Shown here: in pieces, positions 4,486-26,094 of the stretch
Position numbering within the stretch: position 1 is the first letter of the stretch
Layout: every line of letters starts with the position of its first letter
DNA from: Sinorhizobium meliloti
GTDB lineage: Bacteria > Pseudomonadota > Alphaproteobacteria > Rhizobiales > Rhizobiaceae
Reading direction: 5' to 3'
DNA: 32,000 bases
Assembly: GCF_017876815.1 (NCBI RefSeq)
Contig: NZ_JAGIOS010000003.1
Coordinates: 1,200,001-1,232,000 of the forward strand
Made by a program: the position numbers and the translations under genes
The notes under the pieces: generated by a model
What the model was told of the DNA's origin: nothing
What the model saw: the letters and a program-made list of their open reading frames with translations, nothing else
Databases searched by the model: none

Positions 4486-5342
4486 ATGAGGGCAAGCTTG
4501 AGCGAATTGGAAGCGGTTGCCGCGGTTGCCCGGCATGGCGGCTTTCGCGCTGCCGCCCGCCAGCTCGGCATGTCATCATCGGCATTGAGCCATGCAATAG
4601 TAGCGCTAGAAGAGCGCTTGGCGGTCAGGCTCTTCAACCGCACCACGCGCAGCGTCGTGCTCTCTGCTGCGGGAGAACAATTCCTCTCTGAGATCGCACC
4701 GGACTTGCAACAATCGAGAATGCGATCGAGCATATCGGCGAGCATTCGAGTCGGCCTCGGGAAGGCTTCGGCTCAACATGGCGCCGGGAGTTGCACGCAT
4801 GCTGCTGGAGCCGCTGCTACTCGAATACGTCCGCCGCTATCCGGAGGTCGAGCTTGAGGTCGTGTCGGAGAAGGGCCTCGATGCCGGGGTACGACTTCCT
4901 GAGCGATTTCGCCCGATATGGTGGCCATTCCGATCACCCGACCCCGTTCCCTGGTTGTCGGATCGCCTGAATATTTCAAGGGGCGTTCCAAGCCAATCGT
5001 CCCGCTCGATCTGGTGCAGCATCGCTGTATCGAGATGCGCATGGCGAACGGCAGAATGTATCGCTGGGAGTTCGAGCGCCGGGGTGAAGCGCACGTGTTC
5101 AAGTTGCCGGCAATCTGACGCTGACGCGACGGGCCTTATCCTGGCGGCCGCGCATTCGGGCGCCGCACTCGCTTATATCGGCGAGTATTCGCTCGCTGCG
5201 CATATGGCTGCCGGGCGCCTTAATCCGGTGGTGGAAGAGTGGTGCCCTGCTTATCCCGGGCTCAGCCTTTTTTTCGCAACGCCGCCACATGCCCGCCAAA
5301 TTGCGCGCCTTCATCGGCCCGATCAGGGAACAAGCTGTTTGA
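4486..5342 (+). pseudogene. LysR-family transcriptional regulator, multiply frameshifted
   Basis: The HTH (LEAVAAVARHGGFRAAARQLGMSSSALSHAIVALEERLAVRLFNRTTRSV) is in frame 1. Later conserved blocks are spread over all three frames: IENAIEHIGEHSSRPR, then RLRLNMAPGVARMLLEPLLLEYVRRYPEVELEVV, DMVAIPITRPRSLVVGSPEYF...YRWEFERRGE, ATGLILAAAHSGAALAYIGEY...EEWCPAYPGLSL and SQRRHMPAKLRAFIGPIREQAV*. One frame switch lies at a T7 run (5268-5274). Confidence 0.8.
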
Positions 5343-5390
5343 CCAATAGGGTAAAATTGCGCCAAATCATGGGGAGCATGCGCCGGCCCA

Positions 5391-5406
5391 ATTGATGCAG
5401 CTCAAT
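5391..5406. promoter_or_regulatory. Dyad ATTGA-N6-TCAAT (fits T-N11-A) upstream of katG, candidate regulator box
   Basis: Perfect 5-bp arms at 5391-5395 and 5402-5406, 56 nt upstream of the katG ATG. The sequence contains a T-N11-A arrangement typical of LysR/OxyR-type sites. Confidence 0.3.
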
Positions 5407-8911: not shown

Positions 8912-9088
8912 GCAGACTTCGCTCAACCAATTGCACTTTGCTTATCGGTTTCACCAAAAATCTTGATGGAACACTGCGGGTGCTCGACGAACAGCAACGG
9001 CGGCCCGCGCTCTACAGCGCCGCGCGTCTTATCAGACGCGCTAAGAGGGAAACCGTGCAGCGCTTTTCCGTCCGGCCCTGCCTAGCGT

Positions 9089-9766
9089 TCAGGGTAGCTG
9101 CAGTACGTCGGGATGCTGCAGCGGTGCATCCTTGATCCAGATCTCAGCGCCTTCGGGTCCGGTGATCGCTTCGAGCGCCTCTCCTGCGGGCAACCTGCCC
9201 CAACTCTGCGGCTCCAGTTGCTCGCCCCCGACTGCGAGGCCGCCGGAGAGGACGAAGAACTCGAGCCCACGGCGATTCTCGACGCTGACGGCTGAACCCG
9301 GCAGCCAGTTTTCTACCGACACGCGCTCTTTCCCGTCGTCAAACAGGGCCCGCGCTGCCTCGACCCCCTCGCGCAACGGCGCTGGTTCACCCTCTCCAGG
9401 GTGGCGAACGATTTGCGTGCCGTCGCCCTCACGATATTGCCAGAGCCGCACAAAAATCGTGCACCCATTCTTCGAGGCAGGTACATGCGAGGTGCCGGGC
9501 GGATTGCGAAAATAGCTGCCCGCAGGATAGTCGCCGTGCTCGTCCTCAAACGTCCCCTCGAGCACGAGGATCTCCTCGCCGCCGCTATGGACGTGGCGTG
9601 GGAAGGCGCTGCCCGGCGCATAGCGTACGATCGAAGTTGCGCGCGCAACTTCGCCGCCGACACGGTAGAGCATGCGGCGATCCACCCCTGCGGCGGGGCT
9701 CGGAACCCAGTCGAGTTTAGCCGAATGGACGATTACGGGTTTCGTCAGGTCTTCATTGATGCGCAT
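9089..9766 (-). CDS. ChrR-like cupin domain protein (anti-ECF-sigma ChrR C-terminal family), stand-alone
   Basis: 225 aa. Cupin motifs PRHVHSGGEEILVLEGTFEDEHGDYPAGSYFRNPPGTSH, then a second cupin-like half. GGGAGA RBS upstream. Confidence 0.7.
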   Translation of the reverse strand: MRINEDLTKPVIVHSAKLDWVPSPAAGVDRRMLYRVGGEVARATSIVRYAPGSAFPRHVHSGGEEILVLEGTFEDEHGDYPAGSYFRNPPGTSHVPASKNGCTIFVRLWQYREGDGTQIVRHPGEGEPAPLREGVEAARALFDDGKERVSVENWLPGSAVSVENRRGLEFFVLSGGLAVGGEQLEPQSWGRLPAGEALEAITGPEGAEIWIKDAPLQHPDVLQLP

Positions 9767-9860: not shown

Positions 9861-11159
9861 TCAGCGCTGCAACACCGGGGGAACGTAGTCGCGTCCCATG
9901 TCGATCGAGGCAGGACGCCCGGAGAGGAAAAGCTCGCCGACGCGCGGCGCGGTTCTGGCGATAACCTTGCCCGCCTTGATGACGAACAGCCGGTTCGGCT
10001 TCAGCCGCAATGCCTCGGTGACATCCGCCGCCTGCAGCACGACGAGATCTGCCTTGCAGCCAATGTCGAGGCCGTAGCCCTGAAGCCCCATGGTCTTTGC
10101 CGAATTGACGGTGATCGCGTCGAAGATCTTGCACTTGTCCTCGATGCCGGCCATTTGCGCGACGTGGATCGCCATATGGGCGACCTCCAGCATGTCGCCC
10201 GAGCCCATCGAGTACCAGGGGTCCATGACGCAGTCATGCCCGAAGGAGACGTTCAGGTCGGCCGCCATCAGCTCCCGCACCCGCGTCATGCCGCGCCGTT
10301 TGGGATAGGTGTCGTGGCGGCCCTGCAGCATGATGTTGATCAGTGGATTGGGGATCACGTTGATCTCCGCCTCGGCCATCAGCGGGATGAGCTTCGAGAC
10401 GTAGTAGTTGTCCATCGAATGCATCGAGGTGAGATGCGAACCAGCCACGCGCCCCTTGAGGCCGAAGCGCACCGTCTCGGCCGCCAGCGTCTCGATGTGG
10501 CGCGACATCGGATCGTCGGTTTCATCACAATGCATGTCGACCGGGAGGCCGCGGTCGGCGGCGAGCCGGCACAGTGCCTCGACGGAGCGGGCGCCGTCTT
10601 CCATCGTCCGCTCGAAATGAGGAATGCCGCCAACGATGCCGATGCCCATGTCAAGCGCACGCTCGAGGGAGGCGACGCCGCCGGGCGCGCGGAAATATCC
10701 GTCCTGCGGGAAGGCGACGAGCTGCAATTCGATATAGGGTGCGACCTGTTCCTTGACCTCGAGCAGCGCTTCTGCCGTCACGAGGCGCGGATCGGACGTG
10801 TCCACATGGCTGCGAATGTAGAGAAGGCCCTGGGTGACGGCGAGGTCGCAATAACGAAGCGCTCGTTCGACGAGGGCTTCCTTCGTCAGCAGCGGCCGCA
10901 ACTCGCCCCAGAGCGAGATGCCCTCGAGCAGCGTGCCGGAGATGTTCATGCGCGGCAAACCGAGCGACAGCGTCGCATCCATGTGGAAATGCGGATCGCA
11001 GAAGGGCGGGCTGACCAGGCGGCCGGCCGCGTCGATCTCCTCGCCGGGGGTCGCAGTTATCGACTTCTCGATGGCGGCGATCTTGCCGCCGGCAAGGCCG
11101 ATATCAAAGCCCTGCCGGCCGTCCGGCAGGTTCGCATTGCGGATGATCAGGTCGAACAT
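9861..11159 (-). CDS. codA: Cytosine deaminase-family amidohydrolase
   Basis: 432 aa, collinear with E. coli CodA as I recall it: HFH metal site (CDPHFHMD), HCDETDD, LQGRHDTYPKRRGMTRVRELM, FGHDCVMDPWYSMG. GAGGA RBS. Substrate is not determinable from sequence; creatinine and other N-heterocycle deaminases share this fold. Confidence 0.85.
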   Translation of the reverse strand: MFDLIIRNANLPDGRQGFDIGLAGGKIAAIEKSITATPGEEIDAAGRLVSPPFCDPHFHMDATLSLGLPRMNISGTLLEGISLWGELRPLLTKEALVERALRYCDLAVTQGLLYIRSHVDTSDPRLVTAEALLEVKEQVAPYIELQLVAFPQDGYFRAPGGVASLERALDMGIGIVGGIPHFERTMEDGARSVEALCRLAADRGLPVDMHCDETDDPMSRHIETLAAETVRFGLKGRVAGSHLTSMHSMDNYYVSKLIPLMAEAEINVIPNPLINIMLQGRHDTYPKRRGMTRVRELMAADLNVSFGHDCVMDPWYSMGSGDMLEVAHMAIHVAQMAGIEDKCKIFDAITVNSAKTMGLQGYGLDIGCKADLVVLQAADVTEALRLKPNRLFVIKAGKVIARTAPRVGELFLSGRPASIDMGRDYVPPVLQR

Positions 11160-11180
11160 GGGTCAGTCCTCGGGTTTTCT

Positions 11181-12125
11181 TTAGCGCTCGCCGCGCCGGT
11201 ATGGTTGCATCAGGGCCTGCGGAACGCGGGCGCGACGGGCCATGAGCGCCAGCGCTGCGATCGACAGCAGATAGGGGATCATCAGGAAGATCTGATAGGG
11301 GACGACGCCGCTCAGCCGCGTCTGCAGGCGCAGCTGGAAGCCGTCGAACAGTGCAAACAGGAGCGCTCCGACGAGGGCGCGGCCCGGCCGCCAGGAGGCG
11401 AAGACGACGAGCGCTATGCAGATCCAGCCCCGCCCCTGCACCATGGTAGGAAAGAAGCTGTTGAAGGCGGAGAGCGTCAGGAAGGCGCCGCCGATGCCCA
11501 TCAGCGCGCTCCCGACGATGACGGAACCAAAGCGGATCGCCATCGGGTTGATGCCCTGCGCCTCGGCGGCGTGCGGATTTTCGCCAGTCATGCGGATCGC
11601 CAGGCCGAGCGGCGTTCGGAAAAGCACGTAGCCGAGTACCAGCGCCAGCAGGATCGCCACATAGGTCGGCGGCGTCTGTGTGAAGAGCGCCGGGCCTAGA
11701 AAGGGGAGGGATGAAAGCGCCGGGACGTCGATCGGCTGGAACGGCTCGATCGTCGGCGGTGTGCCCGCGACCGGTACCAGCAGACGGAAGACGTAGTAGC
11801 TGAAGCTCGAGGCGAAAAGCGTCACCCCGAGACCGGACACGTGCTGGGACAACCCGAGCGTCACCGTCAGGCCCGCATGCAAGAGGCCGAAGATCCCGCC
11901 AGAGAGGCCCGCGACGAGAATGCCCGTCCACAGGTCAGCGCCGTTATAGACCGTAAGCCAGCCGATCATCGCGCCGAAGGTCATGATGCCTTCGATGCCG
12001 AGATTCAGGACGCCCGAGCGCTCGCACAGGAGCGCGCCGAGCGTGCCGAGGATCAGCGGCGTGGCGATGCGCAGGACGGCCGCCCAGAGGCCTGCGGAAG
12101 CGAAAATGTCAGTGACGGCGTTCAT
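11181..12125 (-). CDS. ABC transporter permease (BMP/nucleoside-type system, second permease)
   Basis: Starts at MNAVTDIFASAGLWAAVLRIATPLILGTLGALLCERSGVLNLGIEGIM and is multi-TM. Its ATG overlaps the upstream permease stop by 4 nt (ATGA at 12122-12125). The longer 619-aa ORF in the track is an out-of-gene extension. Confidence 0.85.
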   Translation of the reverse strand: MNAVTDIFASAGLWAAVLRIATPLILGTLGALLCERSGVLNLGIEGIMTFGAMIGWLTVYNGADLWTGILVAGLSGGIFGLLHAGLTVTLGLSQHVSGLGVTLFASSFSYYVFRLLVPVAGTPPTIEPFQPIDVPALSSLPFLGPALFTQTPPTYVAILLALVLGYVLFRTPLGLAIRMTGENPHAAEAQGINPMAIRFGSVIVGSALMGIGGAFLTLSAFNSFFPTMVQGRGWICIALVVFASWRPGRALVGALLFALFDGFQLRLQTRLSGVVPYQIFLMIPYLLSIAALALMARRARVPQALMQPYRRGER

Positions 12126-13171
12126 CGGCGAATCCTGTACTGGGTGAAGAAGACACCGGTCAGCATGCTGATCAGCGACAGGGCGACTGTGACATCGGCT
12201 ATGTAAGAGGGAATACCCATGCTGCGGCTCATCCCGTCGGCCCCGACGAACATGACGGCCGTGAACAGGGCGGCAAGCACCACGCCCAGCGGATGAAGAT
12301 TGGCGAGCATGGCGACGACGATGCCGGAATAGCCGTAACCCGGCGACAGGTCCGTCGTCACATAGCCCTGCACGCCCATGACTTCGATAGCCCCCGCAAG
12401 GCCGGCGAGCCCGCCTGAAATGCAGGCCACCGTCACCAGGGTGCGGCCGAGCGGCACGCCTGCGAACACCGCCCCGGCCGGATTGAGGCCGGCTGCGCGC
12501 GACTGCATGCCGAACACCGTGCGCGACTGAACGAGATGGACTGCAACGGCCAGGACGAGTGCGATCATCAGTCCGATATGGAGGCGGGATCGGGCGAAAA
12601 GCTTTGGCAGGACCGCTGCGTCGGCAACCGGTTGGGACTGCGGCCATCCGAAGCCCATCGGGTCCTTGAGTGGTCCGTCGATCAGCATGGAGACGAAGAG
12701 CACGGCGACGAAATTGAGGAGAAGCGTGGTGACGACCTCGTCGACCGAAAAGCGCAGCCTCAGCCAAAGCGGCACGAGCAGCAGGACGATGCCGGCTGCC
12801 GCGCCGACGACGAGAAGCAGCGGAATCTGGAGGGGCGAGGGGAGGCCGCCGAAAAGGTGCGAACTGGCGGCGGCGACGGCAATCGCTCCGAGATAGAACT
12901 GACCCTCGGCGCCGATGTTCCAGAGCCTCGCGCGAAACGCGACCGCCGCGGCAAGGCCCGTCAGGATGAGCGGGCTGGCGCGGGTCAAGGTTTCGGTCGC
13001 CGAAAGCCGCGAGCCGAAGGCGCCGACGAGAATGCGCCAATAGGCTTCCATGACCGGGGCACCGGCGATAGCGATGAGCAGGCCGGCGAGCGCCAGCGCG
13101 CAGAGGATCGCAAGCACGGGTGTCGCGATCACCAGGGCGAGCGAACGATGTTCGCGTCGTTCAAAACGCAT
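12122..13171 (-). CDS. ABC transporter permease (first permease)
   Basis: Multi-TM protein with LWNIGAEGQFYLGAI typical of BMP-type sugar/nucleoside permeases. The ATG at 13171 has a GAGG 6 nt upstream; an alternative ATG lies at 13192. Confidence 0.85.
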   Translation of the reverse strand: MRFERREHRSLALVIATPVLAILCALALAGLLIAIAGAPVMEAYWRILVGAFGSRLSATETLTRASPLILTGLAAAVAFRARLWNIGAEGQFYLGAIAVAAASSHLFGGLPSPLQIPLLLVVGAAAGIVLLLVPLWLRLRFSVDEVVTTLLLNFVAVLFVSMLIDGPLKDPMGFGWPQSQPVADAAVLPKLFARSRLHIGLMIALVLAVAVHLVQSRTVFGMQSRAAGLNPAGAVFAGVPLGRTLVTVACISGGLAGLAGAIEVMGVQGYVTTDLSPGYGYSGIVVAMLANLHPLGVVLAALFTAVMFVGADGMSRSMGIPSYIADVTVALSLISMLTGVFFTQYRIRR

Positions 13172-14687
13172 GCGGAACCTCGTGCTCTTCATTCCATTCG
13201 CCGGCCATCATCAGGCCGAGTTTCGTGGCACTGGCGCTGTCGGCGGCGATCGGAGGCGAAAGCCGCCCGTTGACGATGGCCTGAATGCGGTCGGCGAGCG
13301 CCATGACTTCTTCCAGATCCTCGGAGATGAGGAGCACCGCGGTTCCCGCACGCCGCGCTTCGAGCAGCCGCTCGTGCACCGCGGCGACAGCCCCTTCGTC
13401 GAGCCCCCGCGCCGGCTGCGCCGCGAGCAGGATGCGCGGTCGGTCGATCAGATTGCGCCCGAGGATGAGTTTCTGCATGTTGCCGCCCGAGAGCAGCCGC
13501 GTGCGCGTCGTCGGCCGTCCGCCGCGCACGTCGAAGGCATCGATGATCTGGCCGGCGAATGCCTGGCCGGACGGCCGATCGACGAGGCCGTAGCGCGAAA
13601 ATCGCGGCAGGCGCTCGAGAACGGCGTTTTCCCAAATGGCCATTTCGCCGATAGCGCCTTCCTTGTTGCGATCTTCCGGAATGCGGCCGATCCCCGCTCG
13701 GACGGCGCCATCAACCGTGAGGTCGCCGATCGGCTCCCCGAACAGCAGGAGTTCGCCCTTGTCGCGCCGCGCCGTACCCGACAGGAGATGCGCCAGCGTC
13801 GTCTGGCCGTTGCCGGAAACTCCGATAATGCCGAGAATCTCGCCCGCGCGGAGGCTGAAATCGATGGACTTCAGCCGTTCGACGCCGTCGATGCTGACGC
13901 TCACATCCGCGACATCAAGCACCACCTCGCCGGGCGTCGAGGGATCGCGCACCGGCCGGGCAACCTTGCGGCCGACCATCAGTTCGGCAAGCTCGGCCTT
14001 GTTCGTCTCTTTCGCAAGACGCTCGGCCACCTTGCGGCCGCCGCGCAGCACGACGATCCTGTCGGCCGCGGCCATGACCTCGTCCAGCTTGTGTGAAATG
14101 AAGATCAGCGAAAGCCCCTCGCGCGCCATGTCCTTCAGTGTCGAGAACAGCCGCTCGGCCTCCAGATTCGTCAGCACCGCCGTCGGCTCGTCGAGCACCA
14201 GGATATGTGCGTCGTTGTAGAGCGCCTTCAGGATCTCGACGCGCTGCTGCTCGCCGACCGAGAGGTCGCCGACGCGCGCGTCCGGCTCCACCGTCAGGCC
14301 GAACCGCTGGCAAATGTGGTGCAGCTTCCGCCGTGCCGCGCTGGTGCCGGATCGGAGGTGCCAGAGGCGTTCGGTGCCGGCCATAACGTTTTCCAGCACC
14401 GTAAGGTTGGGGGCGAGCGAGAAATGCTGATGCACCATGCCGATGCCGGCGCGGATCGCCGCGCGTGGCTTGCCCGGAGGCAGTTCCCGTCCCTCGACCA
14501 GTACCTTGCCGCTGTCCGGCACATAATGGCCGAACAGGATGCTCATCAGCGTGGTCTTGCCGGCGCCGTTTTCGCCGAGGAGGGCGACGACCTCGCCCTT
14601 TCCGAGGCTCAGCGAGATGTCGTCATTGGCGAGATTGTCACCGAAGCGCTTGCTGACGCTGCAAATGTCGAGAATGGCTTCGCTCAT
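13161..14687 (-). CDS. ABC transporter ATP-binding protein (fused double NBD)
   Basis: 508 aa with two NBDs: GENGAGKTT / LSVGEQQRVEI / LVLDEPT, then GVSGNGQTT / LSGGNMQK. Its start overlaps the amidase stop (ATGA at 14684-14687). Confidence 0.9.
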   Translation of the reverse strand: MSEAILDICSVSKRFGDNLANDDISLSLGKGEVVALLGENGAGKTTLMSILFGHYVPDSGKVLVEGRELPPGKPRAAIRAGIGMVHQHFSLAPNLTVLENVMAGTERLWHLRSGTSAARRKLHHICQRFGLTVEPDARVGDLSVGEQQRVEILKALYNDAHILVLDEPTAVLTNLEAERLFSTLKDMAREGLSLIFISHKLDEVMAAADRIVVLRGGRKVAERLAKETNKAELAELMVGRKVARPVRDPSTPGEVVLDVADVSVSIDGVERLKSIDFSLRAGEILGIIGVSGNGQTTLAHLLSGTARRDKGELLLFGEPIGDLTVDGAVRAGIGRIPEDRNKEGAIGEMAIWENAVLERLPRFSRYGLVDRPSGQAFAGQIIDAFDVRGGRPTTRTRLLSGGNMQKLILGRNLIDRPRILLAAQPARGLDEGAVAAVHERLLEARRAGTAVLLISEDLEEVMALADRIQAIVNGRLSPPIAADSASATKLGLMMAGEWNEEHEVPHAF

Positions 14688-16099
14688 TCCGGAATTCCCG
14701 CGACCGCGAAACGGTGCTGCCAGCGGCCCTCTCTTTCCAGGCGTGCCGCAAGCTCGATGAGGAGGCGGTCGCCGCCCATGGGCGCCAGAATCTGCACCGG
14801 CAGCGGCAATCCGGCGTCATCCGCGCCGAAGGGGAGCGTGAGGGCCGGAAAACCGGTCGCATTGGCGAGTGTGGCGAGTGGCGCAAACGCGGTCATGCGG
14901 CGAATCTGAAGGTCGATATCGTCGTGGTCGAAAGGAAAGGATCCGATCGGAAGGGGTGCCGACGCAAGCATGGGCGTCAGGATACAGTCTACCCGGTCGA
15001 AAAGCGACCAGACCGCGTGGCTCGCATGGACGGCGTCGTCAAGTGTCGCCCAGAGCGCGGTCGCCTCGAGTTGCGATCCATGGTTGATGAAAGCCTGCGT
15101 CAGCCGTTCGGCGCGCCCGGCATCGAGACCGGCGGAAACGACGAAATTGGCAAGGTTGACGGCAATGATGTCGCGCAGAGCCCGGCCGCTCGTCGCAACG
15201 CATGCGGCAAACGCATCCCAATACATCTTAACGACGCTGTGGCCATCCGCCTCCAGTGCGCGCGCGGCCTCTTCGACAGCCTCGCTGCGCGCCGGTTCGG
15301 TCGGGTATTGGTCGCCGGTCTCGAGAAGAAGGCCGACACGTAAGGGGCCGGACGGGGAGGGGGCGAACCACGGATCGGCAAACGGCCCTCTGGCGCGTCC
15401 GGCTGCCGCGTTGAAGATCGCCGCCAGGTCGCGGACGGAGCGGCACAGCGCCAGTTCACTGGCGATGCCGCCGAGATGATTGCCGAAGGATGGTCCAGCC
15501 GCCATCGCACCCCGGCTCGCCTTGAGGCCGAGGAGACCGCAACATGCCGCGGGGACGCGAATCGACCCGCCGGCGTCGGTTGCATGGGCGATCGCCACGA
15601 TGCCCGCGGCAACGGCAGCCGCCGCCCCGCCGGAGGAGCCGCCGGGCGTCCGGCTCTTATCGAGGGGGTTGCGGCAGATGGGGCCGGCCGCCGGTTCGCT
15701 TGCGAGCGAAAGGCCCATTTCCGGCACGGTAGTCAGTCCGAAGAAGCAAAGGCCTGCTCCGCGCAGCCGCTCTGCCAGATCGCTGTCTTCCGCGACGGCG
15801 GCACGGCGCCCGAGCATGTTCGATCCGGCCGCAACCGGCAGGCCGGCGAAGGGGCCGCCCAGGTCCTTGGCAAGGCTCGGGACGCCGAGAAATGGTGGAA
15901 TCCCCCCGCCGCCCGGCTGGTGGCGCAAGCGGGCGTCCGCATTCCCGGCCGCCGTTCGTCCGAGCGTAGGGTCGAGATGGACGATCGCACCGATTTCTGC
16001 CCATCGGCCAGTCGCCGCAAGGGATGCTTCCATCGCTTCGGAAGCGGTGAGGCGGCCCATTCGGATCGCCTCACCGAGAGAAGTTGCATCACCTGCCAT
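14684..16099 (-). CDS. Amidase-signature (AS) family amidase
   Basis: AS motif GGSSGGAAAAVAAGIVAIAHATDAGGSIRVPAACCGLLGLKASRG. Start is either ATG 16099 or TTG 16105, 5-11 nt after the binding-protein stop. Confidence 0.85.
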   Translation of the reverse strand: MAGDATSLGEAIRMGRLTASEAMEASLAATGRWAEIGAIVHLDPTLGRTAAGNADARLRHQPGGGGIPPFLGVPSLAKDLGGPFAGLPVAAGSNMLGRRAAVAEDSDLAERLRGAGLCFFGLTTVPEMGLSLASEPAAGPICRNPLDKSRTPGGSSGGAAAAVAAGIVAIAHATDAGGSIRVPAACCGLLGLKASRGAMAAGPSFGNHLGGIASELALCRSVRDLAAIFNAAAGRARGPFADPWFAPSPSGPLRVGLLLETGDQYPTEPARSEAVEEAARALEADGHSVVKMYWDAFAACVATSGRALRDIIAVNLANFVVSAGLDAGRAERLTQAFINHGSQLEATALWATLDDAVHASHAVWSLFDRVDCILTPMLASAPLPIGSFPFDHDDIDLQIRRMTAFAPLATLANATGFPALTLPFGADDAGLPLPVQILAPMGGDRLLIELAARLEREGRWQHRFAVAGIPE

Positions 16100-16110
16100 A
16101 GACAAGCCGG

Positions 16111-17097
16111 TTACTTAGGCTCGTCAGTGATGCGTGGAACCTCGAAGGCGCCGGACTTGATCTCGGCACGCTTGGCTTCCATGGCCGCTTCGGCATCCGC
16201 CGGGGCGACGCCCTTGACATAGGCAACGTCGCTGCCGCCCTCCTTGAGCAGGCCGAAGGCGGTGTAGTCCTTGCCGACCGGCTTGCCGGCGGACACGTCG
16301 GCAATCGCGGCATTGAGGATCGGGCGGAAGCCCCAGAGCGCGTTGGCAAAGACCGTGTCGGGATAGCGCGGCGTGTAGTCGATCAGCGAACCCACGGATT
16401 TGAGCCCGCGTTCCTTCGCTGCGTCCGCGGTGCCGATGCGCTCGCCGAAGAGGATGTCGGCACCGGCGTCGATCTGAGCGAGGCCGGCTTCGCGCGCCTT
16501 CGGCGGGTCGAAGAAGGTACCGATGAAGGTGACGAGGTGCTTGGCATCGGGATTGACGGCCTTCACGCCCGCAGCGAAGGCATTGATCAGCATGTTGACT
16601 TCCGGGATCGGCATGGCGCCGACGGAGCCGACGACGTTCGACTTCGTCATCTTGCCGGCGAGCATGCCGGCGAGATAGGCGCCGTCGTGGTTCCAGGTGC
16701 CGAAAACGCCGAAGTTGTCGCCCGATTCCTTGCCGCTCGAGCCGAGAACGAAGGCGGTCTCCGGATAGTCGGCGGCGACTTCGCGGGCCTGTTTTTCAAC
16801 GGCATAGGCTTCGCCGATGATGAGCTTTGCACCCTGCTCGGCATATTCGCGCATCGCGCGGGGATAGTCCGTGCCCGAAATGCCTTCGGAGAAGACATAC
16901 TCGATCACGCCTTCGGCGGCCGCATCCTGCAGCGCCTTGTGCAGGACCGAGTTCCAGGCGTTCTCGACCGGGGAGGCGTGGACACCAGCAACCTTGATCG
17001 GCGCGCTGGCGCGGACGGCCGGCGCCAGGGCGCTCACGCCAAGCACCAGGCCCGACGCAAGCACATTGCGCCGGCTCATCATCAAATCTCTTGTCAT
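16111..17097 (-). CDS. BMP-family (Med/PnrA-like) ABC transporter substrate-binding protein with Tat-type signal
   Basis: 328 aa. N-terminal SRRNVLASGLVLGVSALAPAVRASA signal, and BMP-family pattern (KVAGVHASPVENAWN..., GSVGAMPIPEVNMLINAFAAGVKAVNP). Confidence 0.9.
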   Translation of the reverse strand: MTRDLMMSRRNVLASGLVLGVSALAPAVRASAPIKVAGVHASPVENAWNSVLHKALQDAAAEGVIEYVFSEGISGTDYPRAMREYAEQGAKLIIGEAYAVEKQAREVAADYPETAFVLGSSGKESGDNFGVFGTWNHDGAYLAGMLAGKMTKSNVVGSVGAMPIPEVNMLINAFAAGVKAVNPDAKHLVTFIGTFFDPPKAREAGLAQIDAGADILFGERIGTADAAKERGLKSVGSLIDYTPRYPDTVFANALWGFRPILNAAIADVSAGKPVGKDYTAFGLLKEGGSDVAYVKGVAPADAEAAMEAKRAEIKSGAFEVPRITDEPK

Positions 17098-17137
17098 GGA
17101 TGGTGTTCCCCTTTTTACCGATTGGTAGAATCTTTAT

Positions 17138-17158
17138 TTTGTACAAAGTTTTGTCAAG
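17138..17158 (-). promoter_or_regulatory. Candidate promoter -35 (CTTGAC) with a 10-bp palindrome TTTGTACAAA in the spacer, upstream of the BMP-ABC operon
   Basis: On the minus strand, CTTGAC (17153-17158) matches the rhizobial sigma70 -35 consensus as I recall it. The perfect palindrome tttgtacaaa (17138-17147) lies in the 17-nt spacer. The binding-protein ATG is at 17097. The -10 is weak (aaagat). Confidence 0.4.
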
Positions 17159-17399
17159 CAGCGCGAATGAGTAGAAAAGCGGCAACGGAACACATGCTGG
17201 GTTATCTCGCAGAAGTTTCATATCTGCCGGGTGAGCGCGACAGGTGTCGTATTGCCTTCGCGGAACAAGCCCGACGTGCGTTCGTTTCCAACTTGCGAAG
17301 GAGCATCAAGACAGAAGTGCCCAAGGAAGCCTCCGTGTGCCAAGGCACATGTGAGGCTTCCTTGTGCGGGGTGGTCGAGCCGTCAACCCGGAGCTGTTC

Positions 17400-20534: not shown

Positions 20535-20680
20535 CTCCTCCCGCAGAGCTTCGATATGCGAGCGACCTTTCCTCCTCCCGAGTTCGCTTGCGGGATCAGC
20601 GCTACTCCTCCTCCCGGAATGCTGATCGGTTCTTTTGGAAAAGCCTGCCGCACCTCCTCCCGCGGTAGGCTTTTTCGTTT
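20518..20680 (+). ncRNA. alpha-r14 / 'cuckoo' / NfeR1-like trans-acting sRNA with four CCUCCUCCC anti-SD hairpin loops
   Basis: Exact 10-mer CCTCCTCCCG at 20534, 20571, 20607 and 20653, each in a hairpin loop. Stems: 20521-27/20548-54 (7 bp); 20558-65/20584-91 (8 bp, one GU); 20594-600/20621-27 (7 bp); 20639-50/20663-74 (12 bp, one GU). The last is followed by TTTTTCGTTT, giving an intrinsic terminator. A -10-like TATAGT lies at 20508-20513. Confidence 0.7.
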
Positions 20681-21995: not shown

Positions 21996-24197
21996 TTAGC
22001 TGATTTCCGGAAGCTCGTTGATCAGCTTGTCGAGCGTGATGGGATACTGCCGTACCCTTATGGCGGTCGCATTGTAGATAGCGTTCGCGACAGCTGCCGC
22101 GACACCGCAGATCCCGAGCTCGGCGATACCCTTGGCCTTCATCGGCGAGGACATCGGGTCGGTCTCGTTGAGGAAGACGACCTCCTGATGCGGAATGTCG
22201 GCGTGCACTGGCACCTCGTAAGCGGCGAGATCGTGATTGACGAAGAAGCCGCGCTCCTTGTCGACGACGAGCTCCTCCGACAGGGCGCCGCCGACGCCCA
22301 TTGTCATCGCACCGATCACCTGGCTGCGTGCGGTGATCGGATTGAGGATCCGGCCGGCGGCGCAGACCGCCAGCATTCGCCGGATCCGTGTCTCTCCTGT
22401 TGCGACATCGACCGCGACCTCGACGAAATGAGCGCCGAAGGTGGATTGCTGATGGGTCTTGGTGAGGTCACCAAATTCTATCTGGTCCTCCGCCACGAGC
22501 CCCTCATCGCCGGCAGCTTGCGCGAGCGGCATGCGCCGGTCTCCCGACCGGACTTCACCTTCTGCGAAGATCAGGTCGTCGGCGCTGTTGAAACCGAGCT
22601 TCTGCGCCACGGCTTCCCGCAGCTTGGCGCAGGCCGCGTATACGCCGGCGGTGGAGCAGTTTCCTCCGAACTGCCCGCCCGAACCCGAGGAAACAGGGAA
22701 GCGCGAATCTCCCAGGCTTACGGCGACCTTCTCGATCGGGACACCAAGCATTTCGGCCGCCGTCTGGGCGATGATCGTGTAACTGCCCGTGCCGATATCG
22801 GTCATATCGGTCTCGACGGTGACGATGCCCTCGCGGTCGAGCCGGACGCGGGCGCCGGAGTTCAGCACAAGATTGTTGCGGAAGGCCGCGGCCACTCCCA
22901 TGCCGATCAGCCAGTTTCCTTCGCGCCGAGCGCCAGGTTGCTTGCTCCGGTCTCGCCAGCCGAAGCGCTCCGCGCCGGTGCGCAGGCAGCCGACGAGATT
23001 GCGGTGCGAGAAGGGCCGTTCGGGCTTCTCCGGGTCGACCTGGGTGTCGTTGATGATCCGGAATTCGACGGGATCGAGACCCAACCTTTCGGCCATTTCG
23101 TCGATGGCGATCTCCAGCGCCATCATGCCGGGCGCCTCGCCGGGAGCGCGCATCGCGTTTCCTTCTGGAAGATCGAGTGTCGCAAGCCGCATGGCTGTCA
23201 TCCGGTTCTCGCCGGCATAAAGCAGGCGAGTCTGCTGGACGGCCACTTCGGGACCACCGCCCGGAAGGTCCCCGGACCAGCTTTCATGCGCGATCGCCGT
23301 GATCTTGCCGTCGCGCCCTGCACCGATTCTGATCCTCTGGATCGTCGCCGGGCGATGTGTGGTGTTGTTCATCAGGAAGGGGCGGGGGAGGGCGACCTTT
23401 ACGGGGCGCTTTGCTTCACGCGCGGCAAGCGCCGCCAACACCGCATCCGCGCGCAGGAACAGCTTCACCCCGAAGCCTCCACCAATGAACGGCGACATGA
23501 GATGCACCTTGTCCTTGTCGATCCCAAGCGTCGTCGCGAGGTCAGTCCGCCACCAGTCGATCATCTGGCTCGATGTCCAGACCGTCAGGTCGTCGCCGTT
23601 CCACGCGGCGATGGAAGCGTGCGGCTCCATCATGGCATGCGACTGGTCCGGGGTGGTATAGATCTGGTCTAACTTGACGGGGGCTGCTTCGAAGGCGGCA
23701 TCAAAGTCGCCCGCCCCGGAGTCTCCGCCGCCTTCCGGCTCGACAGCGCTGTCCTTCGCCGCGGCCAGATCGAAGGCGCCTTTTTCCTCGGCATAATCGA
23801 CCTTGACGAGCGCGGCGGCGGCGCGGGCCTCCTCGAATGTTTCGGCGACCACGACGGCGATCGCCTGGTGGTAGTGCTGAATTTCGGTGCCGCCGAAGAG
23901 CTTGGCGGTGTTATATTTGCCCTTCTTCAGTTCCCCCACGCCATCGGAGGTGACGACCGCTATCACGCCGGGAGCATTCCTCGCGGCCGCGACATCCATC
24001 GACCTGATCCGGCCCTTGGCGATTGCCGAACCGACGATATAGCCATAGGCATAGCGGGTATTCGGATCATGCCACTCATAGGCATAAATTGCTTTGCCGG
24101 TGGTCTTGAGCGGACCGTCGATGCGGGTGATGGGCTTGCCGATTACCTTGCCCTGATCAATCGGGTTCGTCGTTGCTGGTGTGTCGAATCTCATCAT
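21996..24197 (-). CDS. Xanthine dehydrogenase-family molybdopterin-binding subunit (PaoC/YagR-like)
   Basis: Starts at MMRFDTPATTNPIDQGKVIGKPITRIDGPLKTTGKAIYAYEW, 733 aa, with an AAGGGA RBS. The track ORF (819 aa) runs upstream into the FAD-subunit gene. The start is 1 nt after the FAD-subunit stop. Confidence 0.9.
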   Translation of the reverse strand: MMRFDTPATTNPIDQGKVIGKPITRIDGPLKTTGKAIYAYEWHDPNTRYAYGYIVGSAIAKGRIRSMDVAAARNAPGVIAVVTSDGVGELKKGKYNTAKLFGGTEIQHYHQAIAVVVAETFEEARAAAALVKVDYAEEKGAFDLAAAKDSAVEPEGGGDSGAGDFDAAFEAAPVKLDQIYTTPDQSHAMMEPHASIAAWNGDDLTVWTSSQMIDWWRTDLATTLGIDKDKVHLMSPFIGGGFGVKLFLRADAVLAALAAREAKRPVKVALPRPFLMNNTTHRPATIQRIRIGAGRDGKITAIAHESWSGDLPGGGPEVAVQQTRLLYAGENRMTAMRLATLDLPEGNAMRAPGEAPGMMALEIAIDEMAERLGLDPVEFRIINDTQVDPEKPERPFSHRNLVGCLRTGAERFGWRDRSKQPGARREGNWLIGMGVAAAFRNNLVLNSGARVRLDREGIVTVETDMTDIGTGSYTIIAQTAAEMLGVPIEKVAVSLGDSRFPVSSGSGGQFGGNCSTAGVYAACAKLREAVAQKLGFNSADDLIFAEGEVRSGDRRMPLAQAAGDEGLVAEDQIEFGDLTKTHQQSTFGAHFVEVAVDVATGETRIRRMLAVCAAGRILNPITARSQVIGAMTMGVGGALSEELVVDKERGFFVNHDLAAYEVPVHADIPHQEVVFLNETDPMSSPMKAKGIAELGICGVAAAVANAIYNATAIRVRQYPITLDKLINELPEIS

Positions 24198-24198
24198 C

Positions 24199-25149
24199 TC
24201 ATCCCTTCGCTTCGACAAGAACCGCGCGCAGCGCGCGTTCGACAAGCGTGAGCTTGAAGGCGTTCTGTTCCGTCGGGCGGGCACCGGCAAGAAGCATTGC
24301 GGCCACCGCCTTTGCTCCGTTCGCCAGCTCCTTTTCGGCCGCCTCGTCACGCCATGGTTTCGGCGCGATACCGCCAACGGCGACGCGGCCAGTCCCATCC
24401 GGCTGCACGACGGCGCCGACGGAGACGAGCGCAAAGGCGTAGGAGGCCCGGTCACGAACTTTGCGATAGATCTGCTTGCCGCCAGCCGGCTTCGGCAGGA
24501 CGACCGCGGTGATCAACTCGCCTCGCTCAAGGACATGTTCGATATGCGGCGTGTCACCGGGCAGGCGATGAAGATCTCCCATCGGGATGCTGCGCGTCGT
24601 GCCGTCGGCTCGCACGGTCTCCACGACGGCGTCGAGGGCGCGCATGGCGACCGCCATGTCGCTCGGGTGGCTGGCAATGCAGGCATCGCTGACGCCAACC
24701 ACCGCAAGCTGGCGGCTGAAGCCGGCGAGAGCCGAACAGCCGCTGCCCGGTTGCCTCTTATTGCACGGCTGGTTGGTATCGTAGAAATACGGACAGCGGG
24801 TGCGTTGAAGCAGATTGCCCGCGGTCGTCGCCCTGTTGCGCAACTGTCCCGATGCCCCCGCGAGCAGGGCGCGCGACAGAAGAGCGTAATCACGGCGGAC
24901 CCGTTCGTCGGCGGCAAGATCCGTATTGCGGACCAGGGCGCCGATACGCAGACCCCCTTCCCGCGTAGCTTCGATCCTGTCCAGACCCAGTCCGTTGACA
25001 TCTACGAGATGTGTCGGCGTCTCGATCTCCAGCTTCATCAGATCCAGGAGATTGGTGCCGCCGGCGATGAATTTCGCGCCATCTGTGGCGGCCGCGGCCC
25101 GCGCCGCCGCTTCGATCGACGAGACGCGCTCGTAACTGAAAGCTTTCAT
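24199..25149 (-). CDS. Xanthine dehydrogenase-family FAD-binding subunit (PaoB/YagS-like)
   Basis: [43 protein letters not shown] (CO-dehydrogenase flavoprotein fold). GGGAGGAAGG RBS. ATGA overlap with the FeS-subunit stop at 25146-25149. Confidence 0.88.
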
Positions 25150-25781
25150 GCCTTCCTCCCAGCGACTTCTGTGATGGCTTCGACGATGTTCGAATAGGCG
25201 CCGCAACGACAGATATTGCCGCTCATGCGCTCGCGGATCTCGGCGGGCGTGATTTCGGCCGGCGCCGTGAGATCCACGGTCACATGGCTTGGAATATTGG
25301 CCTTGATTTCATTGAGCATTGCAACGGAGGAACAGATCTGGCCGGGCGTGCAGTAGCCACACTGGAACCCGTCGTGTTTGACAAAGGCGGCCTGCATCGG
25401 ATGGAGGTTCTCCGGCTGCCCCAAGCCTTCGAGCGTGGTGATGCTGTCGCCCTCGTGCATGATGGCGAGCGTCAGGCACGCGTTGACGCGGCGGCCTTCA
25501 ATGAGAACCGTGCACGCTCCGCACTGACCGTGGTCGCACCCCTTCTTGGTACCCGTCAAATGCAGATGCTCGCGCAGCGCGTCGAGAAGCGTCGTTCGGT
25601 TATCGAGCTGAAGCTCCCGGCGTTCGTCGTTCACCGTGAATGTGACCTTCGTGCTCTGGGGTGCGGTGGAGGCATTGGTCTGCGCGTGACCGAGCGAGTG
25701 TGCGCTCACCACTGTCACGGTAGCGGCCGAGGCGGCGAGCAGGTCGCGCCGCGAGATTTCAAGTGCGCCAGGACTTTGCAT
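25146..25781 (-). CDS. (2Fe-2S)-binding subunit with twin-arginine signal (PaoA/YagT-like)
   Basis: [33 protein letters not shown] signal, then [11 protein letters not shown] and CGYCTPGQ / CRCGAY cluster motifs. The ATG at 25781 has GGAG 6 nt upstream; an alternative ATG lies at 25793. Confidence 0.88.
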
Positions 25782-26094
25782 ATCCAACTCCATGTCTTGA
25801 TGACGAAAGGTCTAAAGCGCGTCGCATCCCTAGGATTTATACGCCGCGCTTTAGGTCTTGTTGTGCATGCCGTAGTCGCAAAAACCGCTGCACACCTCTG
25901 GCGACATGCATTGGGACCAAGCGGCCGTGAGCCGCGAACGCGCAACAACCAAGCCCGAGAAATGATCCGGCAGGCGCGTTCACAAGTGAGTTAGGGCGGG
26001 TAGCGCGTGTGACTACCGTCCCGATCCCGATAAGGCCTATGAACGGAGTTCATGAATGGCGGCATTGAAGCAGGCGCCTTCCTAGAAGACGCGA

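Follow-up and report, generated by a model that had tools for sequence, protein, structure and literature searches.

We found that a six-gene operon of Sinorhizobium meliloti likely serves the uptake and deamination of cytosine, and probably of 5-methylcytosine as well, for nitrogen scavenging. The operon lies on the minus strand of a 32,000-nucleotide stretch (contig NZ_JAGIOS010000003.1, positions 1,200,001 to 1,232,000; hereafter the window, numbered from its first letter) and encodes a solute-binding protein (SBP), an AS amidase, an ABC ATPase, two permeases, and a CodA-like deaminase. In the mechanism that we propose, a periplasmic SBP of the BMP family would capture cytosine, probably also 5-methylcytosine, and pass it on to an ABC importer of the CUT2 type, whose subunits are a double ATPase and two permeases. 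In the cytoplasm, a metal-dependent deaminase of the CodA type would then convert the base to uracil (or thymine) and ammonia. Transcription would start from a sigma-70–type promoter upstream of the SBP gene, and a regulator of the TetR family that responds to pyrimidines and is encoded at a distance would probably repress it through a RutR-like operator. The amidase would have been inserted once between the SBP and ATPase genes, inherited with the cassette, and repeatedly lost. We favor the cytosine reading because the deaminase belongs to the NF005748 subfamily and keeps all catalytic and contact residues of CodA, because amidase-less relatives of the transporter and deaminase are widespread, and because the genetics of Azospirillum and the phenotype of pSymA loss support it.

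Deaminase, importer, and published cytosine phenotypes

The gene of the CodA-like amidohydrolase/cytosine deaminase (9861..11159, minus strand; 432 residues; PF07969/PF01979) falls into the PRK07572 subfamily. Its product scored 795.7 bits against the NCBIfam cytosine deaminase model NF005748 (PRK07572; cut-off of 438) and 440 bits, below the cut-off of 483, against the E. coli-type CodA model NF006685 (PRK09230). Identity to E. coli CodA is 45% (E value of 1e-110 and 375 bits against 1k6w), and the next family after CodA was AtzC (E value of 1e-48, 170 bits). The metal ligands H57, H59, H210, and D309 (His61, His63, His214, and Asp313 in CodA) were invariant in the alignments, as were the catalytic and cytosine-contact residues Q152, E213, and H242 (Gln156, Glu217, and His246). 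The CodA motif GHDDVFDPWY reads GHDCVMDPWY in this enzyme, and the position of CodA Asp314 is Cys310 in all aligned alphaproteobacterial deaminases, whether an amidase is present or not. According to a paper summarizing Hitchcock 2014 (PMC6186785), Asp314 keeps CodA from accepting 5-methylcytosine, an Asp-to-Ala mutant gains this activity, and a Ser at the same position permits 5-methylcytosine deamination by Kpn00632 of Klebsiella pneumoniae. Since a Cys replaces Asp314 here, we infer that the substrates of the deaminase are cytosine and 5-methylcytosine. Kpn00632 (PDB 4r7w; E value of 2.6e-96), a 5-methylcytosine/cytosine deaminase of the CodA family, resembles the window enzyme in lacking Asp at position 314; the window enzyme differs in having Cys rather than Ser there, and of Kpn00632 and E. 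coli CodA, the latter is its nearer relative. Its 5-methylcytosine activity is a prediction that would extend, with the Cys, to the whole PRK07572 subfamily.

The six genes recur in identical order and between unrelated flanks in Rhizobium leguminosarum, Tianweitania, a Haematobacter plasmid, Neorhizobium, Ciceribacter, Ectorhizobium, and others, and the arrangement is therefore not due to chance. A deaminase-profile scan of one genome per species found at least 597 relatives, and we annotated the loci of the best 80 by BLAST against the window proteins. About 45 of these best 80 loci pair a PRK07572-type deaminase with this type of transporter. The window order (type A) was present at seven loci and at one truncated locus, and the order deaminase-SBP-amidase-ATPase-permease-permease (type B) at 11, including those of Chelativorans, Devosia, Brucella tritici, Afifella, and Pseudooceanicola. 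Eight loci, and likewise the plasmid loci L007 and L009, have the type B order without the amidase (type C), and about 30 have the amidase-free order SBP-ATPase-permease-permease-deaminase of Azospirillum (type D). Several type D loci are preceded by genes for a GTP-cyclohydrolase-II homologue (URC1), URC4, and upp; at four loci these three precede the deaminase with no transporter (type E), and at about 20 the deaminase stands alone or beside an unrelated BMP system. A neighbor-joining tree of the transporter-linked loci, based on five shared proteins (1850 columns), splits into clade I (types A, B, and C, with SBPs at least 67% identical to that of the window) and clade II (type D). Within clade I, 23 amidase-containing and 10 amidase-free loci are interleaved.

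Two observations concern deaminase genes in other settings. In Azospirillum (L013, 1000-4132) and several Betaproteobacteria, homologues of URC1, URC4, and upp stand directly ahead of the deaminase gene, whether or not the transporter accompanies it; these loci (L013, L066, L069, L077, L081, L073, L074, L076, and L089) look like a complete bacterial module leading from cytosine through uracil into URC catabolism. The closest relatives of the deaminase beyond S. meliloti and S. medicae, at three loci of Ensifer spp. (L015-L017; 89-92% identity), are accompanied by neither a BMP transporter nor an amidase over 9 kb in both directions, and the deaminase gene thus also moves independently of the cassette.

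The SBP (gene SMa2361, 16111..17097, minus strand; 328 residues) is a full-length match to the BMP/PnrA family (PF02608; E value of 8.5e-33, 114 bits against a cut-off of 24). Its signal is of the twin-arginine type (SRRNVL...VRA/SA, with an invariant RR) and has no lipobox Cys, so that the SBP should be a soluble periplasmic protein. The nearest structures are AtzT (6pi5; 31% identity, E value of 1e-32, 117 bits) and the Brucella protein 3s99 (108 bits); TmpC/PnrA, which binds nucleosides, lies much farther off (46 bits). Nine residues form the ligand site of AtzT (Tyr45, Ser97, Phe98, Thr139, Glu165, Asn169, Trp194, Asn218, and Asn220), and AtzT binds cytosine only at 800 μM (PMC6834077). 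Only one of the nine, Glu165, is kept in the SBP (as E166), the remaining positions being N49, A97, Y98, A140, L170, F195, E219, and a gap, which argues that the SBP is not a binder of guanine or hydroxyatrazine. Together with W48, E45, E96, and R220, the AtzT-equivalent positions are the same in the amidase-plus and amidase-minus SBPs of clade I, and the candidate ligand site (E45, W48, E96, E166, L170, E219, and R220) is invariant or shared by at least 55 of 59 sequences across clades I and II. The SBP is 66-71% identical to the SBPs of amidase-less cassettes.

The other transporter genes encode a 508-residue ATPase with two fused nucleotide-binding domains (13161..14687; PF00005 twice), permease 1 (12122..13171 with the PGAP start; 349 residues), and permease 2 (11181..12125; 314 residues), all on the minus strand. 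One double-ABC ATPase with two BPD_transp_2 (PF02653) permeases is the composition of a CUT2-type importer. The best NCBIfam match of the ATPase was a BMP-type transporter ATPase, below cut-off, and the NCBIfam models for a “putative B6 ABC transporter” (NF047927-30) also remained under their cut-offs (101/400, 421/670, 225/400, and 191/465 bits).

The same protein families bear on two other readings. BMP systems are classically nucleoside importers, and some source annotations name the ATPase and permease a “general nucleoside transport system,” as would suit a PnrA/Bmp-type importer of cytidine, or of nucleosides in general, with the deaminase adjacent by chance. However, the SBP is much closer to the nucleobase-binding AtzT and 3s99 than to TmpC/PnrA, the substrate of CodA is the free base and not cytidine, and the published pSymA and Azospirillum phenotypes concern cytosine itself. 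We rejected the nucleoside reading as very unlikely on the relationships of the SBP and the chemistry of the deaminase. Salvage of a triazine-type compound (s-triazine, ammelide, or 5-azacytosine) would follow the lower atrazine pathway, which uses the same three families in AtzT (BMP), AtzC (CodA-like), and AtzE (AS amidase). AtzT is the nearest solved structure to the SBP, AtzC comes next after CodA for the deaminase, and the amidase has weak similarity to the AtzE family (138 bits; E value of 3e-28 to 6c62). Binding-site residues and family scores led us to reject the triazine reading as extremely improbable: the AtzT ligand site is lost but for one residue, the deaminase scores 375 bits to CodA but 170 to AtzC and keeps the cytosine-contact residues, the AtzE score of the amidase lies far under the cut-off of 461, and the cassette is without a cyanuric acid hydrolase or an AtzG-like partner.

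Published phenotypes point to cytosine. S. meliloti lacking pSymA cannot draw its nitrogen from cytosine and exports cytosine, and transplanted pSymA restores both phenotypes (bioRxiv 10.1101/296483). No CodA homologue other than the deaminase described here was detected on any of the S. meliloti megaplasmid records, and the operon offers a concrete gene assignment for the pSymA requirement. In a random-barcode transposon sequencing (RB-TnSeq) study by Price et al., Azospirillum brasilense Sp245 needed the cytosine deaminase AZOBR_RS31895, together with the ABC operon next to it (RS31875-RS31885), in order to use cytosine (bioRxiv 10.1101/072470). The corresponding locus of the sister strain Sp7 encodes BMP, ATPase, permease, permease, and deaminase, the window order minus the amidase, and follows URC1-URC4-upp; its deaminase is 67-68% and its transporter subunits are 47-67% identical to those of the window. 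The SMa2361 protein was detected at pH 7.0 and not at pH 6.1, with a fall in mRNA of M = -3.05 (PMC4941405), and its expression at pH 7.0 indicates that the promoter is active in defined medium.

Several points weigh against the cytosine reading. The pSymA phenotype is known for the whole replicon rather than for the cassette genes, and gene order alone ties the AZOBR tags of Sp245 to the locus of Sp7. The Azospirillum SBP (47% identity) differs at three candidate site positions (N49V, A97V, and F195W), and A140S is additionally common in other clade II SBPs. The RutR-like box of the window is degenerate, with four mismatches to the E. coli consensus. Moreover, cytosine alone leaves the amidase without a role, yet purifying selection keeps the amidase in 23 of 33 close cassettes.

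In kind, the core system is known. E. coli codBA likewise salvages nitrogen and pyrimidines by taking up cytosine and deaminating it hydrolytically, and its CodA shares the metal ligands and the catalytic and cytosine-contact residues of the window deaminase. Uptake in E. coli is by the NCS1 permease CodB, whereas the window cassette has a binding-protein–dependent ABC importer; the two deaminases differ in subfamily and at Asp314, and only the window operon has an embedded amidase. An ABC variant is known from the Azospirillum genetics and is predicted in RutR regulons, but the Azospirillum cluster has no amidase. The six-gene form, in which a cassette-restricted amidase is embedded, is an uncharacterized variant. 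These comparisons support reannotating the widespread “BMP family” and “amidohydrolase family” genes of Alphaproteobacteria and Betaproteobacteria as cytosine importers and deaminases.

The embedded amidase

The amidase gene (14684..16099, minus strand; 471 residues; PF01425, E value of 1.9e-66) starts with ATG, close to an in-frame TTG at 16105. The product is a cytoplasmic enzyme of the AS family, with the Ser-cisSer-Lys triad (K78, S155, and S179) placed within the GGSSGG and GGS[IM]R motifs and invariant in 23 cassette orthologues. It scored below every NCBIfam amidase equivalog cut-off (AtzE 138/461, allophanate hydrolase 88/511, GatA 110/481, and IaaH 134/532 bits), and its best NCBIfam model, PRK07869 (250/418 bits), was uninformative. 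The best solved relative was NylA (3a2p; profile E value of 1.6e-64, full length), followed by urethanases, and a PDB profile search with the amidase alignment gave no lead beyond these. NylA, a 6-aminohexanoate-cyclic-dimer hydrolase, has the same triad; it differs in being a distant relative that acts on a nylon by-product and stands in an unrelated genomic context. Between SM11-type and 2011-type alleles, dN/dS was 0.22 for the amidase and 0-0.13 for its neighbors. The conserved triad and the purifying selection point to a catalytically active accessory enzyme. In a side observation on the same alleles, the amidase gene diverged most between S. meliloti strains: the amidases of the SM11 and 2011 types were 94% identical in amino acids and the products of the five neighbors 98-100% (window 14684-16099 vs. 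L002 9743-11158). Synonymous divergence (dS) was unusually high, ∼0.1, over the segment from SBP to permease 1 and 0.03 for permease 2 and the deaminase; this pattern suggests a recombination boundary inside the operon.

Within the cassette, the amidase is facultative and evolutionarily dispensable. It is missing from 10 of the 33 clade I cassettes, and in Sinorhizobium sp. M103 a frameshift splits it between intact neighbor genes. B. tritici and Brucella pecoris carry the gene; Brucella pseudintermedia and a related isolate have a 69-nucleotide spacer instead, between the same flanks. The amidase tree and the cassette tree contain the same groups (r = 0.82 for pairwise distances), with the amidase diverging twice as fast as its cassette partners (0.45 vs. 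0.22). The mixed presence in clade I and the congruent trees are most simply read as a single ancient insertion with repeated losses thereafter. Among clade I loci, no position in the SBP, ATPase, permeases, or deaminase tracked the presence of the amidase, and the flanks of the 33 loci held no further recurring neighbor beyond the cassette itself and lineage-specific synteny.

The subfamily appears to be confined to the cassette, where its gene immediately follows that of the SBP. Searched at E values of at most 1e-40, plasmids gave 197 amidase hits, all of them apparently the cassette amidase: the taxa and records of the top 196 (at least 53% identity, with one place taken per record) are those in which the cassette occurs, and the context was confirmed directly in all six plasmid records checked. 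The most divergent hit, from Ruegeria (43% identity), lies in a type B cassette. No distant amidase relative in another context was found among the 197 plasmid hits, with six contexts directly checked.

The amidase is central to the model of the first-pass annotation, a dedicated uptake-and-hydrolysis route for an amino- or amido-substituted heterocycle that would need both enzymes in sequence. Either the amidase would turn an N4-acyl-cytosine (e.g., N4-acetylcytosine from ac4C-containing RNA) into cytosine for the deaminase, or the deaminase would make a cyclic amide, as from creatinine to N-methylhydantoin, whose ring the amidase would open. The model gains from an amidase that is found only within the cassette and always translationally linked to transporter genes, that keeps its catalytic residues under purifying selection, and whose nearest solved relatives are hydrolases of a cyclic diamide (NylA), of carbamates (the urethanases), and of aryl acylamides, chemistry that makes N-heteroaryl amides or lactams plausible substrates. 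It loses on the cassettes without an amidase, including those of sister Brucella species with identical flanks, on the frameshifted gene, on the faster evolution of the amidase, and on the lack of any residue in the other proteins that separates amidase-plus from amidase-minus loci. Two findings that the annotation itself had together named as refuting a dedicated route, a deaminase that belongs with bona fide cytosine deaminases and a dispensable amidase, largely hold at the evolutionary level, in the NF005748 match and in an amidase that is often missing, once broken, and without co-variation in its partners. What stands from that model is the coupling of uptake to hydrolysis and the atypical position of the amidase gene; for the substrate, the evidence favors plain cytosine, and probably 5-methylcytosine too. 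We consider this two-enzyme model unlikely, and we retain a two-enzyme route for a cytosine derivative as a less probable alternative to the cytosine reading.

Under the cytosine reading, the failure of any partner protein to co-vary with the amidase slightly favors a role downstream of, or alongside, the deaminase. Our best guess, made with low confidence, is that the amidase frees extra ammonia from an amide or ureide of pyrimidine breakdown, of the ureidopropionate, ureidoacrylate, or ureidomalonate kind; de-acylation of N4-acyl-cytosine ahead of the deaminase is a slightly less favored alternative. It is doubtful, although conceivable, that the cassette-restricted amidase catalyzes an undescribed step of pyrimidine nitrogen salvage; such a step could be the de-acylation of N4-acyl-cytosines from modified RNA or nucleoside antibiotics, or an ATP- and oxygen-independent hydrolysis of a ureide or lactam derived from pyrimidines. 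If such a step is real, the six-gene version would be a two-enzyme route that yields more nitrogen or accepts more substrates than the plain cytosine system. The substrate of the amidase could reveal an unrecognized pyrimidine-derived nutrient or catabolic step.

Operon junctions, putative promoter, and candidate operator

Direct reading confirmed the six co-directional genes of the first-pass annotation in the order SBP, amidase, ATPase, permease, permease, deaminase, and Pfam confirmed its protein families (PF02608, PF01425, PF00005 twice, PF02653 twice, and PF07969/PF01979). The junctions from SBP to deaminase measure 11, -4, -11, -4, and 21 nucleotides. The ATPase start overlaps the amidase stop in the ATGA at 14684-14687, the two permease genes overlap in the ATGA at 12122-12125, and the ATPase and permease 1 genes share 11 nucleotides, an overlap absent from the earlier annotation. 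Overlaps or gaps of at most 21 nucleotides and a gene order kept across genera would be compatible with a single transcription unit. A terminator scan found no convincing terminator inside the six-gene set, its terminator-like matches lying within coding sequence, and an Rfam scan of the operon found no riboswitch or leader. At type B loci, the deaminase gene stands upstream of the SBP promoter and box, so that it may be transcribed separately there. Ninety-four nucleotides downstream of the deaminase gene lies a ChrR-like double-cupin gene (9089..9766, minus strand; PF12973). No terminator was found in the gap between the two, and the cupin gene is possibly co-transcribed with the cassette in S. 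meliloti. It was not beside the cassette in any other genus examined and lies outside the conserved cassette.

The first-pass annotation had extended the gene set to 17158, but this end is noncoding: it is the first base of a CTTGAC hexamer, and the open reading frame of the SBP cannot start upstream of 17097. The hexamer (17153..17158, minus strand) is a putative -35-like element, and AAAGAT (17130..17135, minus strand), 17 nucleotides after it, is a putative -10-like element. The CTTGAC at 17158-17153 fits the rhizobial sigma-70 consensus, CTTGAC-N17-CTATAT, and CTTGAC(A) stands at the same place ahead of the SBP gene in 11 orthologous loci; a transcript would be predicted to start near 17123. 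An E. coli-type promoter scan found no promoter at this site. Between the -10-like element and the ribosome-binding site, 32 nucleotides upstream of the SBP start codon, lies a 16-bp palindrome resembling a RutR box (TCTACCAATCGGTAAA; 17114..17129, minus strand), a candidate operator. Twelve type A upstream regions share CTTGAC(A) as the -35, a -10, and the palindrome (T)ACCA-NN-TGGT(A/C)AA just before the ribosome-binding site; the orthologous -10 hexamers, at the same spacing, are CTAT-like (CTATGA, CCTAGA, and CCTACA types).

RutR is a regulator of pyrimidine catabolism of the TetR family that responds to uracil and thymine. In its E. coli consensus, TTGACCAnnTGGTCAA, positions 4 and 13 matter most, and the repressor is released by uracil (PMC2475637). 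The window box agrees with this consensus at 10 of 14 positions, including both key positions. Boxes at orthologous loci match at up to 13 of 14 (e.g., TTGACCAATTGGTAAA and TGGACCAAATGGTCAA), and the box stands at -29 to -37 in 11 of these loci, its position thus being kept across genera. With a background rate of 0.25 per kb, a RutR-like site was present within 200 nucleotides at 18 of 32 loci in clade I but at only 3 of 27 in clade II; none was found upstream of the Azospirillum cluster. In reconstructed RutR regulons of proteobacteria, codA appears in 13 genomes and each of two predicted pyrimidine ABC transporters in 10; a GTP-cyclohydrolase-II homologue is listed as well, as is, in one genome, a “predicted amidase” (PMC5343134 supplement). 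No regulator gene adjoins the cassette, as the first-pass annotation had also observed, and the LysR gene sits beside katG. On these motif matches, the operon probably belongs to a RutR-type pyrimidine regulon with a regulator encoded at a distance, outside the window, a link that would explain why none is found nearby; the window site differs from known RutR sites in its degeneracy. As a candidate RutR, the TetR gene at 2349-2915 was rejected, as it gave no NCBIfam RutR match and only a weak ScbR-family hit.

Three features of this region stand apart from the candidate operator. The spacer between the -35- and -10-like elements contains a perfect 10-bp palindrome (TTTGTACAAA; 17138-17147, minus strand), which is present in S. 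meliloti and not in the orthologous promoters of other genera. The transcription start site (TSS) map of strain 1021 has an antisense/divergent start, SMa_TSS3278, whose predicted promoter includes the RutR-like box in reverse complement (∼17111-17139). For SMa2359, the divergent TauE gene, the same map has a start that depends on RpoE2, at window position 17296.

Replicon, strains, and neighboring genes

At 100% identity, the window matches the pSymA-type megaplasmid of S. meliloti SM11. Its identity to the pSymA of strain 2011 is 97.3%; in that strain the operon genes are intact and an insertion lies outside the operon. This insertion of ∼1 kb, shared by strains 2011 and 1021, is located between the MFS and cupin genes (window 8927-9088). 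Some field isolates have an ISRm17-family insertion inside the matched region. The LysR-type regulator gene upstream of katG (4486-5395, plus strand) is broken into at least two frames (4486-4857, then 4778-5395) and is annotated as intact, at 296 residues, in strain RCAM1115; the broken frames could be a pseudogene or sequencing errors. A molybdenum hydroxylase operon of the PaoABC/xanthine-dehydrogenase family (21996-25793, minus strand), with a 819-residue large subunit and FAD and Fe-S subunits, lies ∼5 kb from the cassette. Elsewhere it is not syntenic with the cassette, and a tie to oxidative pyrimidine catabolism would be pure speculation.

We assigned the SBP gene to SMa2361 because three anchors agree in the published pSymA coordinates. 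The position of the amidase in strain 1021 fixes the coordinate conversion, and SMa2359 (1330682-1331458) corresponds to the divergent TauE gene. The third anchor is a small RNA (sRNA) candidate between SMa2355 and SMa2357, which coincides with the alphaproteobacterial sRNA ar14 at window 20552-20677 (plus strand; Rfam RF02344, 87 bits). The sRNA candidate is A6 of del Val et al. 2007.

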